A DNA stretch of 64,000 nucleotides from Candidatus Hestiella acidicharens (GCA_035161305.1 JAALXO010000075.1:1588-65587), one strand, 5' to 3'; shown: positions 46,078 through 60,466, counted from the first letter of the stretch. Numbers and translations: made by a program. Notes: a model not told the origin generated them from the sequence alone.

Positions 46078-46152
46078 GCCGCGGTAGTATAGCCCGGCCC
46101 AGTATGCGGGCCCTTCGAGCCCGTGACCCGGGTTCAAATCCCGGCCGCGGCA
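46078..46152 (+). tRNA. tRNA-Glu(UUC), position 33 is C
   Basis: Acceptor GCCGCGG/CCGCGGC, anticodon arm CGGGC-CCTTCGA-GCCCG, T-arm CCGGG-TTCAAAT-CCCGG. Confidence 0.93.
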
Positions 46153-48391: not shown

Positions 48392-48488
48392 GCCGCCGTA
48401 GCTCAGACCGGTAGAACCCTGCGTGGGTACCGAAAGCGCTGGCCTTGTAAGCCAGTGGTCGCGGGTTCGAATCCCGCCGGCGGCTCCA
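48392..48488 (+). tRNA. tRNA-Thr(UGU) with 20-nt non-canonical D-arm intron at 22/23 (48415-48434), encoded CCA
   Basis: CTGGC-CTTGTAA-GCCAG; BHB: AGA bulge, CGGU/ACCG helix, AAA bulge, ACCC/GGGU intron stem. Confidence 0.93.
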
Positions 48489-48575
48489 ATTCATATAAGG
48501 TTTCCTTATTGATAACTAAGCTGATTACCTAGCTCTTCGGACTGGTTCAGTTTACTATGGAAGCCTCAAGGAAAT

Positions 48576-48868
48576 ACTATCTGCTTATTTGAGTATTCAA
48601 TTTGACAACTAGGGAAGCATTTAAATGCTTGGGAAAAGTCTGTTAATAAGAAGAAGGAATTGTAATACCTCTCTTCTCCTGCACCGATGAGAATAAGGTT
48701 ACCATCAAGGACTTGAGGTTATGCTTAACTTCCCGTAAGGCGGGTTAAGTGGTACCTGTCGATGTAGCTTTCGATGAACCACCGACAAAGATGAGGTGGA
48801 TGAGGGAGGACCTGTGTATGGTTACCAAAGTTACCAAAATAACGAAAATACCATACACAGGCAACCAC
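48576..48868 (+). repeat. Dispersed repeat family B, copy 2
   Basis: Collinear homology to the reverse complement of 15958-16272, including a 22-nt exact block. Confidence 0.9.
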
Positions 48869-49016
48869 CGCGGAAGACCGACTTTTTGAAGCGAGGAGAA
48901 GACCACGTTATGTTTTATCAAATGTTATACTCTACGCTATATTCTGCAATTAGTGCTACATCCTCTTCGGGATGTCCTTATGTCTTCAATCTCAATCTTC
49001 ACGTTTTCAGTTCTAA

Positions 49017-49342
49017 CTAGAACTCATAGCCTAGTTCGGAGGCTACCTCGGCCATCACTCAAAATCTTTATCTCTTGTTACTAGCCTTTCTCCTCTGTTT
49101 AGTGCTATTGAAGCTATTAGTAAGTCGGCGAATGCTTGAGGCTATCTTCTTTTTAGTAGTTGCAATTGAAGTTCATGGGCGGTAAGGTAGTCTTGCTCTA
49201 CGGGGAATATAACGTTGCCTTGGAAGTGTTTGTAGTATACTATTCGAGGGTACTCTACAAGAGTCACGACAGTTATATCCTCGGTTATGGGCTTCCTCTT
49301 GCGGACCTGGCCTATCGCAATACTGGTATCTAATATTGTCAA
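49017..49342 (-). pseudogene. vapC: VapC (PIN) toxin pseudogene
   Basis: MTILDTSIAI...; in-frame TAG at 49142-49144 followed in the same frame by PQAFADLLIASIALNRGERLVTRDKDFE, then a frameshift. Confidence 0.85.
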
Positions 49343-49566
49343 GATAGCCGCTCCCTCTCATGTCTACGTAGCTCTTTTATGTTGTATTCTCCCACCTCAA
49401 TATCCTCTAATAGCCGCTCCCTCTTCACGCCGAGTTTCACTCTAATCTCTTCAATACTAGTTCGACCCCAGAGCTTCGCTACTACCTCCTCTATAGCTCT
49501 CCGGGCCTCCTCTTCTGAGACCCACGGAGGTAGCCTAACCGTGATGGTTTTTGGTTTACTACTCAT
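49339..49566 (-). CDS. Putative antitoxin partner of VapC
   Basis: Small charged ORF (MSSKPKTITVRLPPWVSEEEARR...) overlapping the PIN gene start by 4 nt. Confidence 0.7.
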   Translation of the reverse strand: MSSKPKTITVRLPPWVSEEEARRAIEEVVAKLWGRTSIEEIRVKLGVKRERLLEDIEVGEYNIKELRRHERERLS

Positions 49567-50497
49567 CACAATCACCCCTCCAAAGAGTAAATACCCACCC
49601 AAACCTTAAAGACCCTCGTGAGCACTTACGCTTACATGAGCTCGCTTACTGTAGTTTAATGCAGGTTCTCAAGTTATCGAAAGTCCTAATATCGATTTCG
49701 CTTACAAACATGACTCAGCAAGTCTGAGATAGTGACACATCCGCGAGCACTACTAACACCTCATGAAGTAATGCCTTGGAAGAAACTATGCTAGCGTGAC
49801 GCTCAGGTCTGGAACGGAGTAGAGATGGAATATTAAGACTGAAAGGAAAGCATACACTTGCGTATAGTAGCATATTTGTTCCAGAGAGGCTATGAAAGAT
49901 TTCTGAGACTTCATGCTCTTTTGACGAGATGTCGCGTCTAAGGTAATATTTCAGTAGACATATGCTATTACACGCGGTTATTTGCGTATAACCATACAAA
50001 GGCTTCCACTGTTAACTCTCGGAGTCTATTTGTGTCATTAACCTCTGCCATTTCTTCGAGGTTGCTCACATGCGGGCTGTGTTATTTGTAAATCCTATGA
50101 ACTATGTAAGCTTTACTCTTTTAATAGTTTATAAATGCTATAACATAAATAAACCCTTATAGGCCTCAGTAAGGAAATTATGGTGCTAGGTGAACACTAT
50201 TTCTCTAGGTTTCTTGTTTCACATGCTAGTGTAGAGGCTCTTGAGCATAGTGCTGCCCCTGGATTTTGGTAGGTAGAAGAGGGTAAGCTTCCTTAACCAG
50301 CAACTGCATGTAGTCTTCGTTAAGCTCGTCCATCAAAACCTTGAGCAAACCATAGAAAGGGGAAGAACACTGTAATGCAATGAAAATAGATCATAATTCC
50401 AGTCGATGGTAAGGAGGCTCAAGGGTTATTTAGACTTAAGTTTATCGCAGGCTTCTGCGTAGATTTATGTTGAGCACTTTGAGGGGTGTAGGAAGAT

Positions 50498-51796: not shown

Positions 51797-51965
51797 TCAA
51801 ACTCTCCTCCATTGTTCTTCAACGTATTTCTTTACAACATTCGCTGTTTACATTACCTGTTGTTGCAACAAAGTAGCTCCTATTCCATAACTTGCCATAC
51901 TTAGCTCTTGTCGTTATATACGGGAACTTCTGTAATATCCTTCTGGCACTCTTGCCTTTGGCGAA
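51797..51965 (-). pseudogene. tnpA: Y1 (HUH) transposase TnpA C-terminal fragment
   Basis: KGKSARRILQKFP...KLWNRSYFVATTGNV..., frameshift, VVKKYVEEQW with the catalytic Tyr. Confidence 0.88.
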
Positions 51966-52309
51966 GCACAACATCATCCCGCAACCAACTATAACTTGTC
52001 CCAGTAAGCTTTATAAAAAATTCTTTCTTTATTAGCTTGTCATAAAGAGGCTATCAGAACCTAAAGAAACCTTAAAAGGCCTATAATCTGGAAACCGCTA
52101 ACAATTCTTAAATGAATATAGAACTAGATCTTTTCATATCTTTTTATTTCATTAATCGGTAACAGATCAATAATGATCATAATTTACACAATAGTTTTTT
52201 ATGTAAAGGGGCTTTTGTATAATTGAAATTTGCTTATAATTTATACTTTGGACATGGCTATTAATTTGCCCACTCTGTAACCGTTAAAAATTTTCCCTAA
52301 CAGATAATA

Positions 52310-53773
52310 GTGGTGAGAATCTTGGGGCTTAGAAATGTGGAAGAGTATTTGTCTAGCCTGAAGGACAAGAGGGAGGTTTACTATAGAGGAGAAATGGTAG
52401 ATGATGTAACAGAACACCCAGTTTTAAGCATCGCTGTTAGACATGCCTCTGATATCTATAGGCTACAGCACGATCCGAAATATAAAGACCTTTTAGTTTA
52501 TGACGATCCTAAATATGGAGCTATAAGTGGTTTTTATAGAATCCCTCGAAGTGCAGATGACCTATTAAATAGGTTTGAGTTGATATATGAAACCACAAGG
52601 CTTGGAAGGGGCATGTTTAATATAATTAAGGCCATAGGTTCCGATGCGCTCTTCGCATTAATGATCATAGCCAAACAAATGGATCTTATGTTAGGTACAA
52701 ACTATTATGGAAAGGTTTTAGATTATTACAAAAATGTTGTAGAAAATGATTTGGCTTTAGCAGTAGCACAAACGGACGTGAAGGGAGATAGATCCAAGAG
52801 GCCTCACGAGCAGGAAGATCCAGACATGTACCTCCGCATAATTGAGAAGACAAAAGAAGGTATTTACGTTCAGGGGGCTAAGGTTCACACCACGCAGTCC
52901 ATTGCTGCAAATGAGTTGATAGTGCTTCCGACTAGGGCCATGATAGAAAAGGACAAAGACTATGCAGTTGCATTTGCAATACCAGCAAATACGAAAGGCG
53001 TTAAGATGATTTCTAGGCCGATGAAAGGAGTTGAAGCTGCCCTAAAAGACCCTAGCTTTATAATGGGTAGGATGAACGTGGAGAGTGAAACTGTAACCAT
53101 ATTTGATAATGTCTTCGTGCCATGGGAAAGGGTTTTTATGAGTGGAGAATGGAATTTCGCAGGCCCACTAGCCATAACCTTCCCAATATATCATAGGTTT
53201 ACCGCGATCTCCTATAGGGCAGCAATGGCCGACCTTTTGCTAGGCCTTGCAAAGCTATTAGCGGAGTATAATGGAGTAGATGACAAGTCTCACATACGTA
53301 GGGATATAGTTTATATGATACGCTACAAGGAGATGTTGCGCGCTACTGCCATAGCGGCGGCACATGAATGCCAGGTTGATAAAAACACTGGTATAGTAGT
53401 TCCAAACATTATTATGACCAACATAGGAAAGCTCCTGGCAAATGAAGAGTATACTTCTACAATAAAGCATTTGGTTGATGTTGCCGGGGGCCTAGCAGCT
53501 ACTATACCCAGCATTCAAGACTTTGAGAATCCAAATGAGGGCAAATACCTAGAAAAATACTTGGTCGGTGCTAGGGGCTCTGCTATAGAAAGGACAAGGC
53601 TCTTCATACTCCTTAAAGAATGGATATCTTCTTTCGGGTCACTATTTACGACGGCGATGATGCATGCAGAGGGCTCAATAGAGGCTAGCGTTATAGAGCT
53701 CTACAGGTCTTATCGCTATGAAAAAAGCAAGGAACTAGCATTGTACGCCTCTGGTCTTAAAGAAGAGTTGTAG
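52310..53773 (+). CDS. 4-hydroxybutyryl-CoA dehydratase/HpaB-family flavoprotein lacking Fe-S cysteines
   Basis: AQTDVKGDRS, GAKVHTT, IFDNVFVPWERVF, YHRF, MHAEGS; only one Cys in 487 aa. Confidence 0.85.
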   Translation: MVRILGLRNVEEYLSSLKDKREVYYRGEMVDDVTEHPVLSIAVRHASDIYRLQHDPKYKDLLVYDDPKYGAISGFYRIPRSADDLLNRFELIYETTRLGRGMFNIIKAIGSDALFALMIIAKQMDLMLGTNYYGKVLDYYKNVVENDLALAVAQTDVKGDRSKRPHEQEDPDMYLRIIEKTKEGIYVQGAKVHTTQSIAANELIVLPTRAMIEKDKDYAVAFAIPANTKGVKMISRPMKGVEAALKDPSFIMGRMNVESETVTIFDNVFVPWERVFMSGEWNFAGPLAITFPIYHRFTAISYRAAMADLLLGLAKLLAEYNGVDDKSHIRRDIVYMIRYKEMLRATAIAAAHECQVDKNTGIVVPNIIMTNIGKLLANEEYTSTIKHLVDVAGGLAATIPSIQDFENPNEGKYLEKYLVGARGSAIERTRLFILLKEWISSFGSLFTTAMMHAEGSIEASVIELYRSYRYEKSKELALYASGLKEEL

Positions 53774-53957
53774 CTTTTTTTGTCTAAGAACAACTTAAAG
53801 GCCTTTATCTAATAAAGACTCTATGTGTACTTTTTGTGGGATATGCTTTTAGTTATGCAAAAAATATATCTTAAAGCAATAGTATAAAGATTTCATTAAA
53901 AAATATATTTTAGGATATGACCACAAATAGGCGAAAGAGCTTTAGGAGGGATTTTCT

Positions 53958-55157
53958 TTGGAAAAGTATGATGTGGTTATTGTAGGTGGTGGTATAGCGG
54001 GACTTTCTATTGCCAGAGAACTCTCAAAATACAATGTATCAACCCTCGTTATAGAAAAAAATGAGGACTTTGGTAGAGAAATGACGGCAAGTAACATGAC
54101 GTTAGTTTGTCAAGGGGCAGACTCCCTTACTTTTAGATATGGAACGCTTCATGCAGAACTGAACATAAAAAGCATACCATTATGGCCAAAATATGCAGAA
54201 GAACTCGGCGTTCCCTTTAAAAAAATAGGTGGTCTTGGCTTGATAAGGGATAAGGCTGACTTCTTTAGGTTTATGAAGATGTATTCAAGGGCATTTAAAT
54301 CTTCGCTAAAGGGTGAAGAATCGTACTATATTCCTAAAGGTAGCTTCGAACCACTACAGTTTTTGAATAAGAAGGCTCTAAAAGACTTAGAGCCCTACTC
54401 GAATCCAAAAATCCAAGGAGCCCTATATGACCCAAACCTAGCTGTAACGGATCCTGTAAAGTTGGCTGTAGCACTAGCCGAAAATGCTAAGGCTAACGGC
54501 GTTGAGTTTCTTTTGAAAAATGAGGTAAATAAAATTATGAGGGAAGACGAGTATTTTACGATTATAACTAATGAAACTTCTATTAAAGGCTCGTTCATTG
54601 TGAACGCTTCTGGAATAAATGCGGATAGGTTAGCTGAAATGGCAAAGGCAAGGGATTTTAGCTATGTTCCAGTTAAAGGGGTTTTGACGGATTTTGATGA
54701 AGATACAAGCGAGGTCTTTAAACACCAAGCATTTTATCTCCCAAGTCTAGGAGAACCCCATATTAAGGCTGTAGTTCCTCTAATATACGGGGGCCTCAGG
54801 GTCGGTATCCATCTAAGCTTTACGTTGCGTAGCGATAAGGAGATTCCTCTAGGGGCAGCAGATCATAACCTAGGGGTTATCAAGAGCATTGCTCCTGGCT
54901 ATCCTTTTGAAAAACACATTAAGAAGACGTTCTTTGGTATAATGCCTCTAACAAATGCCGAAACTGGCTGGCATGACTTTGTTGTGGATACACCACCTCA
55001 CGTACCTAGGTGGATTAACGTAATTTTAGGACCGGCCGGGGTTTCCTCTTCGCCGATGCTTGGAAAGAAGGTGGTTGAGTTGCTTTCAACATCAGGCTTA
55101 GAGATGGAGCCTAATCCTAGGTTTAGTTCTTCGGCCAAAGGAGGTGTAAAGGGATGA
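53958..55157 (+). CDS. FAD-dependent oxidoreductase (DAO/LhgO/GlpA-like)
   Basis: DVVIVGGGIAG, DPVKLAVALAENAKANGVEF, VNASGINADRLA, GPAGVSSSPMLG. Confidence 0.85.
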   Translation: MEKYDVVIVGGGIAGLSIARELSKYNVSTLVIEKNEDFGREMTASNMTLVCQGADSLTFRYGTLHAELNIKSIPLWPKYAEELGVPFKKIGGLGLIRDKADFFRFMKMYSRAFKSSLKGEESYYIPKGSFEPLQFLNKKALKDLEPYSNPKIQGALYDPNLAVTDPVKLAVALAENAKANGVEFLLKNEVNKIMREDEYFTIITNETSIKGSFIVNASGINADRLAEMAKARDFSYVPVKGVLTDFDEDTSEVFKHQAFYLPSLGEPHIKAVVPLIYGGLRVGIHLSFTLRSDKEIPLGAADHNLGVIKSIAPGYPFEKHIKKTFFGIMPLTNAETGWHDFVVDTPPHVPRWINVILGPAGVSSSPMLGKKVVELLSTSGLEMEPNPRFSSSAKGGVKG

Positions 55158-55993
55158 GCGCGTTATCTAGAAAGGTGGACTTGAATATGGCTATTAAAAT
55201 TATAAATGCAATGATTATGTATGCAAATGATAATGGGCTGTTACCTGGTAGCTATGCAGTTGTTGACGAAGGAGGGCACGTAGTTGCGTTTGAGAGGAGG
55301 GATGAGGCACCAGCTGCAACTGCTGACATAGCCATAGATAAGGCTTGGACAGCTGCTACTATGAAAGCTTCAGGAAGGATACTCGAGATCATATCTAAGG
55401 GCCAGGGTTGGAGGCTTAATGTGAAACATAAAGGTAGGCTAACCATCATTCCAGGAGCAGTTCCAATAATAGCCAATGCAAGGGTTATTGGAGGTGTTGG
55501 TCACAGCGGTGGTTCTGCGGAAGACGATTTAAAGATAGCACAAGCCGGCTGGACTGCGATCTTTAGGGAAGAGGATTTCAACGCTGAGGTGGAGGAAAGG
55601 CTTTCCCTTGCAAGGAAAATTGCCAAGGAAGTAATAGAGGAAGTGGATAATAGAAAGCTTAAGCCAGTAACCTTGGCTGTAGTAGATGAATGGGGTCACC
55701 CAACCTTGATTTATAGGATAGATGGGGCTCCTTTTGGAACTTTAGAATTAGCAAGGGACAAGGCCTGGACAGCTGTTGCTTTCAAGACCCTATCAGAAAA
55801 CGTATCATCGCTTTATTCAAATATGATAAGTGCAACAAACTGGAATGAAAGGCTCACTCCTATCCCTGGGGGTGTCCCATTCATGTATAATAAATTTGCT
55901 GGAGCAATTGGGATTGCAGGCAACATGCCTGAAGAAGACAAGAACCTTGCTATAAATGTAATAAAAAAGGTTGGGCTTGAATTGCTTGGCTAG
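55154..55993 (+). CDS. Tandem GlcG/HbpS (DUF336) heme-binding-domain protein
   Basis: Two repeats: AVVDEGGH...RRDEAP....IAIDKAWTA...PGAVPI...GGVGHSGG...DD and AVVDEWGH...RIDGAP....LARDKAWTA...PGGVPF...GAIGIAG...ED. Confidence 0.88.
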   Translation: MSALSRKVDLNMAIKIINAMIMYANDNGLLPGSYAVVDEGGHVVAFERRDEAPAATADIAIDKAWTAATMKASGRILEIISKGQGWRLNVKHKGRLTIIPGAVPIIANARVIGGVGHSGGSAEDDLKIAQAGWTAIFREEDFNAEVEERLSLARKIAKEVIEEVDNRKLKPVTLAVVDEWGHPTLIYRIDGAPFGTLELARDKAWTAVAFKTLSENVSSLYSNMISATNWNERLTPIPGGVPFMYNKFAGAIGIAGNMPEEDKNLAINVIKKVGLELLG

Positions 55994-56270: not shown

Positions 56271-57566
56271 TTGTTGGTCGGGATCAAAGAGTTCACGGGA
56301 CTTCTGGTTCTTTTAATAATAATAGGTGGTTTCATACTCAGGGCAAAGAAACCGAAGATTCCGGCATGGTCTATAATGTCCTTTGCTGGGTCAATGAGCG
56401 TCCTTTTTGGCCTAATACCAATAGGCAAACTAAACTATATTATAAATTGGAATTTGATATTGCTTTTAATAGGTATGTTCAGCATAGTTGGGATAATAGA
56501 AGAATCAGGCCTTATTGACTACTTTATTATAAAGCTTTCCAGGCTAACAAAGAATAGGACGTTACTCCTTTATATCTTCTCGCTATTTTTTGCTATAGCT
56601 GCATCTTTCATGGTTAATGATGCCGTTGCAATTTTTGGTGTAAGTTTCTTACCCATGATATCGAGGATCCTTGATATGCCCTTAGAGCCACTCGCCTTTT
56701 TGTTGATATTCTCTATAACTATTGGGTCTGCTATGACCCCTATAGGTAACCCGCAGAACATGCTTATTGCGACGGAGGCAAGCATAAGCGCCCCTTTTGT
56801 TACTTTTTTTAAGTATCTTGCATTACCAACGTTTATAAATTTATGTTTGACCACCTACATATTGACAAAAATTTATAGGATTGAAGAAGGCAATAAGTAC
56901 CTCAATCAAAGCTCACTAGTTCAAAAAAATTTGAAGAATAAGAGGGATGCATACGTCGGTTTAATAGGTTTACTTTTAACAATTTTTCTCATGCTTCTGA
57001 ACGACTTCTTGGAGATGTTTAAGCTACCTCACGTGACCCAGATAGGCCTAATACCTTTTGTTGTAGCCTCATTTTCATATATCTTTGTTTCAAGCCCAAG
57101 GGAGGTATTATCAAAGGTTAACTGGAGTGCCATAATATTTTTCATAGCGATGTTTATAGCTTCTCAAGGAATTTGGAATTCAACCCTTCTTAACTATCCG
57201 TTACACTACCTCTTACCAAGACTTATGAATAACACTAGCGGTTTCTTGAGAATAACCTTAATATCCCTTTTATTTAGCCAACTTTTGAGTAATGTACCGT
57301 TTACTAACATCTTCATATTGTATTTGCACAACCTAGGTTATAGCTCAAGTGATGTGCTCTCATGGATTACGTTTTCTATGAGCTCTACAATTGCAGGAAA
57401 CTTCACAATATTAGGCGCGATATCAAATGTTATAATACTTGATTCTTTAGAGACTAGGTTCAGCACTTTCATTAGCTATGCAAAGTTTATAAAGCTCGGG
57501 GTGATGATAACGCTTGTGAACGTTTCCGTTTATTTGTTATACATAATTGCTTTGTCTTATCTATAA
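56271..57566 (+). CDS. ArsB/NhaD/SLC13-family ion transporter
   Basis: INWNLILLLIGMF, MVNDAV, IGSAMTPIGNPQN, LLSNVP, STIAGNFTILGAISN. Confidence 0.88.
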   Translation: MLVGIKEFTGLLVLLIIIGGFILRAKKPKIPAWSIMSFAGSMSVLFGLIPIGKLNYIINWNLILLLIGMFSIVGIIEESGLIDYFIIKLSRLTKNRTLLLYIFSLFFAIAASFMVNDAVAIFGVSFLPMISRILDMPLEPLAFLLIFSITIGSAMTPIGNPQNMLIATEASISAPFVTFFKYLALPTFINLCLTTYILTKIYRIEEGNKYLNQSSLVQKNLKNKRDAYVGLIGLLLTIFLMLLNDFLEMFKLPHVTQIGLIPFVVASFSYIFVSSPREVLSKVNWSAIIFFIAMFIASQGIWNSTLLNYPLHYLLPRLMNNTSGFLRITLISLLFSQLLSNVPFTNIFILYLHNLGYSSSDVLSWITFSMSSTIAGNFTILGAISNVIILDSLETRFSTFISYAKFIKLGVMITLVNVSVYLLYIIALSYL

Positions 57567-60393: not shown

Positions 60394-60466
60394 CGCCGGG
60401 GGAGGGACTCGAACCCTCGACCGCCCGGTTAACAGCCGGGCGCTCTACCAGCTGAGCTACCCCGGC
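60394..60466 (-). tRNA. tRNA-Asn(GUU)
   Basis: GCCGGGGTAGCTCAGCTGGTAGAGC...CCCGG-CTGTTAA-CCGGG...GGTTCGAGTCC. Confidence 0.96.

Follow-up and report, generated by a model that had tools for sequence, protein, structure and literature searches.

Proteins of the GlcG/DUF336 family are found in all domains of life and are encoded in glc, pdu and nah operons, with no agreed biochemical role. Members bind heme, cobalamin or formaldehyde and occur in aldehyde-producing pathways without an assigned role (PMC8153426). Among flavoproteins of the DAO fold, multi-subunit dehydrogenases are known. A Ser, a His and an Arg are common to the glycerol-3-phosphate (G3P) oxidase GlpO and to L-2-hydroxyglutarate dehydrogenase (L2HGDH); the His is the proposed base, and its mutation abolishes L2HGDH activity (PMC10726252). 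The GlpA-CoxG system of Sulfolobus acidocaldarius has conserved G3P-binding sites and measured G3P activity (PMC11962113). For the 4-hydroxybutyryl-CoA dehydratases (4HBD, AbfD), the [4Fe-4S] ligands C99, C103, C299 and H292 and the residues required for dehydration have been described (bioRxiv 10.1101/2020.02.05.935528), and homologs of "type-2", which keep His-292 and are devoid of the cluster cysteines, are uncharacterised (PMC4681859). Here, three consecutive genes are analysed that encode an Fe-S-less AbfD-like flavoprotein (P0001), a DAO-fold flavin adenine dinucleotide (FAD) oxidoreductase (P0002) and a tandem GlcG protein (P0003). They are located in a stretch of 64,000 nucleotides (nt), in the following termed the window, from Candidatus Hestiella acidicharens (GCA_035161305.1 JAALXO010000075.1:1588-65587), and were originally predicted to form a pathway of their own.

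The three genes probably belong to two unrelated units, the AbfD-like gene and an operon of the DAO and tandem GlcG genes that encodes a heteromeric flavoenzyme. A gene for a 273-280-amino acid (aa) HbpS-like protein directly follows each of the four DAO orthologs that were looked up (Acidilobaceae/Desulfurococcales, Caldisphaera and Vulcanisaeta), the other neighbours being different in each case. Both bacterial loci looked up show the order DAO-BFD, Pyr_redox_2 flavoprotein, DUF1667, HbpS-like, HbpS-like. A scan with the clade alignment yielded 70 loci of the "xQG" clade, 15 of them archaeal (Acidilobaceae, Caldisphaera, Vulcanisaeta) and approximately 55 bacterial (Syntrophales/Thermodesulfobacteriota, Dehalococcoidia, Geothermincolia, Dethiobacter and others). 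GlcG units are located directly downstream of DAO in 59 of the 70, in agreement with the predicted pairing of the flavoprotein with a double GlcG protein, and nine of the 11 loci lacking them are cut by a contig end inside the cluster. In bacteria, DAO-BFD is followed by a NOX-like gene, DUF1667 and then either two GlcG genes or one fused GlcG, while the archaeal form consists of DAO and fused tandem GlcG, with neither BFD nor NOX nor DUF1667. As a control, 80 His-type loci with the same DAO-BFD/NOX/DUF1667 layout were inspected, none of which contains a GlcG gene (Fisher p = 7e-31 for loci that are not phylogenetically independent). A glycerol-kinase-like gene is found near 30 of these 80 loci compared to none of the 70 xQG loci. 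DAO and the two GlcG units are a real two-gene unit kept in archaea and bacteria, and the pairing is strictly conserved. No DAO-GlcG association was described in the open-access papers searched.

The stop codon of DAO and the start codon of GlcG share an ATGA, an overlap of 4 nt, and a GGAGGTG resembling a Shine-Dalgarno (SD) sequence is located approximately 8 nt upstream, both indicating translational coupling of the two genes. The GlcG product (279 aa) matches PF03928 in two stretches with 171 bits (cut-off 25), and both halves were recovered in the genome search. Each half matches the folds of OrfY, EfgA, PduOC and HbpS with TM-scores of about 0.75-0.81. According to class bit scores, the archaeal N half is most similar to bacterial GlcG1 or to the N half of fused forms, and the C half to GlcG2 or to the fused C half. 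By this measure the two GlcG units are distinct paralogs held in a fixed order. Fused forms are found in Archaea and Actinomycetota, and since the tree sets the Actinomycetota fused forms apart from those of the archaea, fusion probably occurred more than once. The fused tandem GlcG proteins of Actinomycetota (Geothermincolia/Solincola; L063, L066, L068, L069, L073, L074, L078, L086, L089 and L090) are 293-306 aa large and contain an extra loop of approximately 14 residues in the N unit. The invariant K63, S118 and D125 of the N unit are spaced like K57, S114 and D121 of EfgA.

For the DAO-GlcG complex, ipSAE values of 0.84, 0.85 and 0.84 were obtained, compared to 0.00 for the best control. 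Of 80 solved complexes, 58 attain the mark applied, as do 2 of 110 mismatched pairs; these counts hold only roughly for this model, since it was built on custom alignments. The runs share at least 91% of contacts, with a partner pLDDT of at least 86. Since no DAO-DUF336 complex was found among the structural neighbours of either protein, it is unlikely that the model passed by memory of a solved complex. On the DAO side, the modelled interface comprises residues 223-238 (a conserved A-x-D-F-x-x-x-P strand), 267, 287-293 and 333-336, the last being the start of an NxETGWH insert; in the GlcG N unit it comprises residues 3-4, 22-28, 73-76, 103-109 and 127-139. Conserved residues at this interface are F234, P238 and N333 of DAO and D26, P104 and Q130 of GlcG. 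The model supports binding of the DAO protein to the GlcG protein.

P0002 has a DAO fold with a GxGxxG FAD site. Its predicted features, a 399-aa FAD oxidoreductase with a VCQG motif, no C-terminal [2Fe-2S] domain and an overlap with the tandem GlcG gene, were all recovered. The protein ends where its relatives start the Fer2_BFD domain. The model resembles GlpO of M. pneumoniae (MpGlpO, 4x9m) with TM-scores of 0.87-0.90 (E = 1e-21, 25% sequence identity). VCQG is located at residue 50, and the only Cys of the protein, C51, aligns to His51 of MpGlpO. In this alignment, Ser47, His51 and Arg320 of MpGlpO correspond to Met47, Cys51 and Met329. None of the 59 readable xQG clade members carries a His at position 51, the position of Arg320 is always hydrophobic and Gln52-Gly53 is invariant. 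The NxETGWH insert (residues 333-339) is restricted to the clade, which is monophyletic versus the His-type relatives with a support of 100 (FastTree, SH-like local support only). The archaeal BFD-less proteins form one group that is sister to the bacterial xQG proteins in the FastTree phylogeny. Next in similarity to P0002 (34-39% identity) are proteins from anaerobic bacteria, which measure approximately 490 aa and carry a BFD [2Fe-2S] domain.

Curated models fit P0002 poorly, with 150.7 bits for type-2 GlpO (NF033460, 460 required) and 51 for GlpA (TIGR03377, 552.8 required). An identity as L-2-hydroxyglutarate oxidase LhgO was rejected (NF008726, 92.9 versus 299 bits; catalytic His replaced). 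Since the His, Arg and Ser of GlpO and L2HGDH are missing and no glycerol kinase gene adjoins, the substrate of P0002 is probably neither G3P nor a 2-hydroxy acid bound in the manner of GlpO and L2HGDH. A role of Cys51 as catalytic nucleophile or flavin-linking residue was discarded, seven of the 59 clade members having Asn, Lys or Arg instead. The beta subunit of the P. horikoshii L-proline dehydrogenase (1y56_B) likewise aligns a Cys at position 51, which makes a C-N oxidising chemistry conceivable for P0002. A canonical cluster is encoded elsewhere in the same genome, comprising an FGGY kinase, an FAD_binding_4 oxidase, a DAO-BFD protein with an IIH motif and a Pyr_redox_2 protein, with no GlcG; P0002 is therefore not needed for glycerol use. 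In this cluster (contig C52, L024:5176-11845), the GlcD-like FAD_binding_4/FAD-oxidase_C gene is located between the FGGY kinase and the DAO-BFD genes, and a divergent gene for an iron-dependent alcohol dehydrogenase adjoins the cluster.

In the mechanism proposed here, the DAO and tandem GlcG genes would form a translationally coupled operon for a heteromeric flavoenzyme, in which the GlcG N unit may dock on the substrate-binding domain of the flavoprotein via the NxETGWH insert and the A-x-D-F strand. The archaeal pair represents the minimal form of the bacterial five-gene cluster of DAO-BFD, NOX-like flavoprotein, DUF1667, GlcG1 and GlcG2. The BFD domain, the NOX-like protein and DUF1667 would serve electron output in bacteria, and the archaeal clade has lost these three and kept both GlcG units. 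Since the parts for electron transfer are missing and the GlcG pair is retained, the latter would act on the substrate or product side, at a domain remodelled to accommodate it, and not in electron output. It is quite possible, though we would not go as far as to call it probable, that the paralogous GlcG pair is an obligate subunit of an unrecognised DAO-fold family (xQG) of acidophilic Thermoproteota and of anaerobic Syntrophales, Dehalococcoidia, Geothermincolia and Dethiobacter. The pair would bind or hand over a substrate or product at the remodelled mouth of the active site, the substrate being unlike that of any characterised relative. If this holds true, an enzymatic role would be assigned to DUF336 for the first time.

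Several points weigh against the proposal. The nearest solved structure and the nearest curated model for P0002 are both G3P oxidases. Position 51 is a Cys in 52 of the 59 readable sequences, an Asn in five, a Lys in one and an Arg in one, so a catalytic role of the thiol is doubtful. Two ambiguous loci (L045, L095) have 0.4-1.4 kb of downstream sequence with no recognisable GlcG, and the DAO-GlcG complex is a predicted one. Moreover, the flanking genes yield no consistent clue to the substrate: at the 70 DAO loci, only lineage-specific neighbours were found and none that is general (DUF364/DUF4213, UbiE-type methyltransferase, MOSC, metallo-beta-lactamase, radical SAM, POR, aldehyde:ferredoxin oxidoreductase, PALP enzyme and CoA-transferase).

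The GlcG pair might instead not be a subunit at all and act as a co-expressed binder of a reactive product, i.e. as a sensor or scavenger of aldehydes or tetrapyrroles similar to EfgA, HbpS and PduOC. EfgA senses formaldehyde and DUF336 genes are found in aldehyde-producing pathways (PMC8153426), each half of P0003 has the DUF336 fold, and an aldehyde:ferredoxin oxidoreductase gene adjoins one bacterial cluster, with 2-oxoacid:ferredoxin oxidoreductase genes adjoining two others. Nevertheless, this seems unlikely, given a complex model that scores 0.84 versus 0.00 for the controls with an interface on conserved, clade-specific residues. Two paralogs held in fixed order and repeatedly fused also fit a structural hetero-pair better.

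Slightly less likely still is a further G3P dehydrogenase or oxidase isoenzyme, in which GlcG replaces BFD, NOX and DUF1667 as electron acceptor or anchor, similar to GlpA-CoxG of S. acidocaldarius. Such an enzyme would be in line with the best curated match (type-2 G3P oxidase, 150.7 bits) and the best structure (MpGlpO), with the annotation of relatives as G3P dehydrogenase in one source, with the variable C-termini and partners of archaeal G3P dehydrogenases (PMC11962113) and with the ability of DUF336 proteins to bind heme or cobalamin (PMC8153426). However, the curated score falls far short of the 460 bits required, the equivalents of His51, Arg320 and Ser47 are replaced throughout the clade, and a glycerol kinase gene is near none of the 70 loci compared to 30 of the 80 His-type loci, with a canonical kinase/G3P dehydrogenase cluster already present in the genome. 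A replacement is also not what the bacterial clusters show, since the GlcG pair coexists there with BFD, NOX and DUF1667.

The AbfD-like gene stands outside the DAO-GlcG operon. Apart from the window, its adjacency to DAO was found only in one metagenome-assembled genome (MAG) of the same genus, Hestiella, the proteins being 95-97% identical. No DAO or GlcG gene is located within 7 kb of the orthologs with 77% (Acidilobales/Desulfurococcales MAG), 65% (Thermoplasma), 61% (Caldisphaera) and 59% identity (Vulcanisaeta moutnovskia); in the first of these, the DAO-GlcG pair is encoded approximately 60 kb from the AbfD-like gene on the same contig. Among the 80 best family loci, taken from at least 600 stretches, DAO and GlcG genes are found beside the AbfD-like gene in one, the congeneric Hestiella contig, and the AbfD-like gene is absent from all other DAO-GlcG loci surveyed. 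The expectation that the neighbours would show what the Fe-S-less AbfD homolog does is not borne out, with the linkage limited to one genus and missing in 79 of the 80 family loci; the neighbourhood survey proposed in the original prediction as a test speaks against the three-gene linkage, which is genus-restricted. In Hestiella, the AbfD-like gene simply landed upstream of the DAO-GlcG unit, of which it is, judging from the loci compared, a chance neighbour.

The predicted separate transcription of the first gene is compatible with the gap of 184 bp, which was confirmed and contains a T-run and A/T-rich promoter-like sequence. The run of seven T begins 2 nt past the AbfD-like stop, and TATA-like A/T-rich stretches are located approximately 40-100 nt 5' of the DAO start, a TTG codon preceded by AGGAGG at a distance of about 9 nt. 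A scan for bacterial-type promoters and terminators gave no more sites than in shuffled sequence. It is very improbable that the three gene products catalyse consecutive steps of one pathway (hydroxy-acid, acyl-CoA or aromatic catabolism). In favour of such a pathway, the genes are adjacent on the same strand here as well as in Ca. Hestiella sp., and the SD-like AGGAGG before the DAO start would suit a gene inside an operon. Against it, the linkage does not extend beyond one genus and is missing at the 77-59% orthologs, at 79 of the 80 family loci and at the other DAO-GlcG loci, the AbfD-like and DAO genes are about 60 kb apart on one contig in one MAG, the gap holds the T-run and the promoter-like sequence, and the remnant of an IS200-like element closely 5' of the AbfD-like gene suggests that the region was rearranged locally.

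P0001 is a two-domain HpaB_N/HpaB protein, the best solved relatives of which are the 4HBD structures 6vjr (N. maritimus; E = 6e-75) and 1u8v (C. aminobutyricum AbfD; E = 3e-70), both aligned over the full length; HpaB monooxygenase structures score lower. All sequence features noted at the outset, namely the TDxKGDRS motif, MFNIIKA in place of CFQRC and one Cys, were read in the protein (TDVKGDRS at residue 155, MFNIIKA at residue 102, C354 as sole Cys). In the HMMER alignment (1u8v numbering), the [4Fe-4S] ligands C99, C103 and C299 are replaced by I105, A108 and Y302, and H292 is kept as H295. Of the catalytic residues, T190 (T195) and E257 (E258) are retained, while Y296 and E455 are replaced by A299 and A449. 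A nearly invariant Glu454 occupies the position of A460 in the AbfD-like family. The same replacements are found in 17 family members from Acidilobales, Thermoplasmata, Vulcanisaeta, Sulfolobales, Aigarchaeota and Bathyarchaeia. P0001 fits the description of the "type-2" proteins, and judged by its residues it cannot carry out radical dehydration. A 4HBD was rejected as its identity, the cluster cysteines, Y296 and E455 being replaced, as was the 4-hydroxyphenylacetate 3-monooxygenase HpaB (203.9 bits versus a cut-off of 480.2 and 149.8 versus 885.2 for TIGR02309 and TIGR02310). For Msed_1220, the paralog in M. sedula, no measured activity is listed, and its expression does not rise under autotrophy (PMC7078158).

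The Fe-S-less family comprises at least 600 stretches in a motif scan of one genome per species, spread over archaea and many bacterial phyla. It reaches beyond the Crenarchaeota to Poribacteria, Entotheonella, Dehalococcoidia, Methylomirabilota and others. The commonest neighbours of an acyl-CoA type at the 80 loci are short-chain dehydrogenases/reductases (27), acyl-CoA synthetases (12, mostly archaeal), acyl-CoA dehydrogenases (9), thiolases (8) and enoyl-CoA hydratases (7), and in Thermoplasma the AbfD-like gene is placed within a beta-oxidation block. Judged by these usual neighbours, the AbfD-like protein most likely works with FAD on an acyl-CoA thioester, where it might catalyse a vinylacetyl-CoA-isomerase-like step or a non-radical (de)hydratase or dehydrogenase step. 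This assignment is read from the neighbourhood, and it is weakened by genes for zinc-dependent alcohol dehydrogenases and GFO/IDH/MocA oxidoreductases, which are equally frequent as neighbours and are not acyl-CoA genes, as well as by the uninformative neighbours of the orthologs in close relatives. A second AbfD-like paralog (491 aa, 34% identical) is encoded in the same genome on contig C16 (L025:6691-8166) next to urocanase, arginase-family and M24 peptidase genes. It retains a CxxxC pair, the His and the GGAC-K Cys, possibly a full set of [4Fe-4S] ligands, and is a candidate for a true dehydratase in an amino-acid-degradation context of a heterotroph.

The source MAG is archaeal, with 1.39 Mb in 78 contigs, and a gene for a TATA-binding protein was found by domain search close by in the window. 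The nearest public relative is Candidatus Hestiella sp. of the family Acidilobaceae. The three open reading frames (ORFs), all on the plus strand, lie where the original prediction had placed them (Table 1; 55154-55993 for the GlcG gene as a whole).

Table 1. Coordinates of the features of the locus, counted from the first nucleotide of the window.
Feature	Position	Strand	Description
Fe-S-less AbfD/4HBD-like flavoprotein ("type-2"), P0001	52310..53773	+	487 aa; HpaB_N and HpaB, 293 and 174 bits; independent gene outside the module
Intergenic region	53774..53957	+	184 bp; T-run, A/T-rich TATA-like stretches and AGGAGG; direct sequence reading
DAO-fold FAD oxidoreductase, "xQG" clade, P0002	53958..55157	+	399 aa; PF01266, 160 bits; BFD-less, Cys51, NxETGWH insert
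GlcG/HbpS-like N unit of tandem protein P0003	55154..55573	+	PF03928 match at residues 9-132; GlcG1 ortholog; predicted docking unit
GlcG/HbpS-like C unit of P0003	55601..55993	+	Second PF03928 match, window 55601-55963; GlcG2 ortholog

With E = 3e-8, the Y1_Tnp model of IS200-like transposases matches, over its positions 73-115, a 52-aa frame on the minus strand (window 51822-51977) upstream of the AbfD-like gene. This frame is located 330 bp 5' of the gene inside an ORF-free gap of approximately 1 kb, and as a relic of a mobile element it is compatible with a recent local rearrangement. Further upstream, in a region of approximately 2 kb (window 48500-50497), ORFs do not exceed 98 aa, whatever the frame; the longest frames gave no Pfam match, and neither an Rfam family nor tandem repeats were found in the region. 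This region could be non-coding, a decayed gene or a novel RNA. The tRNA-Thr(GGT) gene at 48392-48488 exceeds the standard tRNA length with 97 nt and probably holds an archaeal intron. Additional tRNA genes in the window are those for tRNA-Glu at 46078 and tRNA-Asn at 60394.

Single DAO-GlcG loci show features of their own. Genes related to metals or tetrapyrroles are encoded next to archaeal DAO-GlcG pairs, namely a BtuF-like Peripla_BP_2 gene, feoAB with an iron-dependent repressor and a CitMHS transporter gene (L016:9094-10317, L018:2607-5741 and window 56271-57566), each in single loci, and DUF364 "heavy-metal chelation" genes are located upstream of DAO in Syntrophaceae. This neighbourhood may be due to chance. 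The Acidilobaceae MAG M2_metabat2_scaf2bin.202_VB contains two loci of DAO and tandem GlcG on separate contigs (L030 and L039, 68% and 71% identical to P0002), either a real duplication or the result of a mixed bin. In Vulcanisaeta sp. JCM 16159 and V. distributa JCM 11217 (L054:6983-8196 and L065:6983-8199), DAO is split into ORFs of approximately 200 and 194 aa, in L054 together with the GlcG gene; these are possibly pseudogenes or frameshifts of the draft sequences.

With this thermostable two-gene system, GlcG/DUF336 proteins gain a specific, co-inherited enzyme partner with a modelled interface, testable by co-expression. Members of the xQG clade currently receive the automatic annotation "glycerol-3-phosphate dehydrogenase", but the residues required for the G3P reaction are missing in them. 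Fe-S-less "4HBD type-2" proteins often serve as markers of carbon fixation in metagenomes; since the family is very broad and found in acyl-CoA contexts, the presence of type-2 proteins is no evidence for 4-hydroxybutyrate cycles.

Compared to the 4HBD enzymes 1u8v and 6vjr, P0001 keeps the equivalents of H292, T190 and E257 as well as TD(V/P)KGDR, but not the cluster cysteines, Y296 and E455. The DAO-GlcG unit has its nearest described counterpart in the His-type DAO-BFD/NOX-like/DUF1667 clusters ("GlpTk-NOX-MOX" G3P dehydrogenase of Thermococcus, Thermotoga and Clostridia; PMC11962113), the DAO subunit of which is homologous (28-31% identity). Bacterial xQG clusters have the BFD domain in common with them, as well as homologs of the NOX-like and DUF1667 genes, while the I-I-H-x-G and G-L-R motifs of the His-type are contrasted by the absence of both His and Arg and by the NxETGWH insert in xQG proteins. 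GlpA-CoxG of S. acidocaldarius (Saci_2032/2031; PMC11962113) is likewise an archaeal DAO-fold protein that has lost BFD and whose gene adjoins that for a small non-redox partner, but this partner is CoxG-like and not a DUF336 protein, and it is in P0002 that the substrate residues are replaced. MpGlpO (4x9m) belongs to the same length class and also has no C-terminal domain, but it has no GlcG partner. The E. coli glc operon (GlcDEF and GlcG), the PduO C-domain, HbpS, EfgA, OrfY and NahX share with the present system the fold and the association of a DUF336 gene with an oxidoreductase for small organic acids. E. coli GlcDEF, however, is a VAO-type/Fe-S enzyme and not of the DAO fold, and its GlcG is a single unit, whereas in the system described here two paralogous units are kept in fixed order, are often fused and are predicted to contact the flavoprotein directly.

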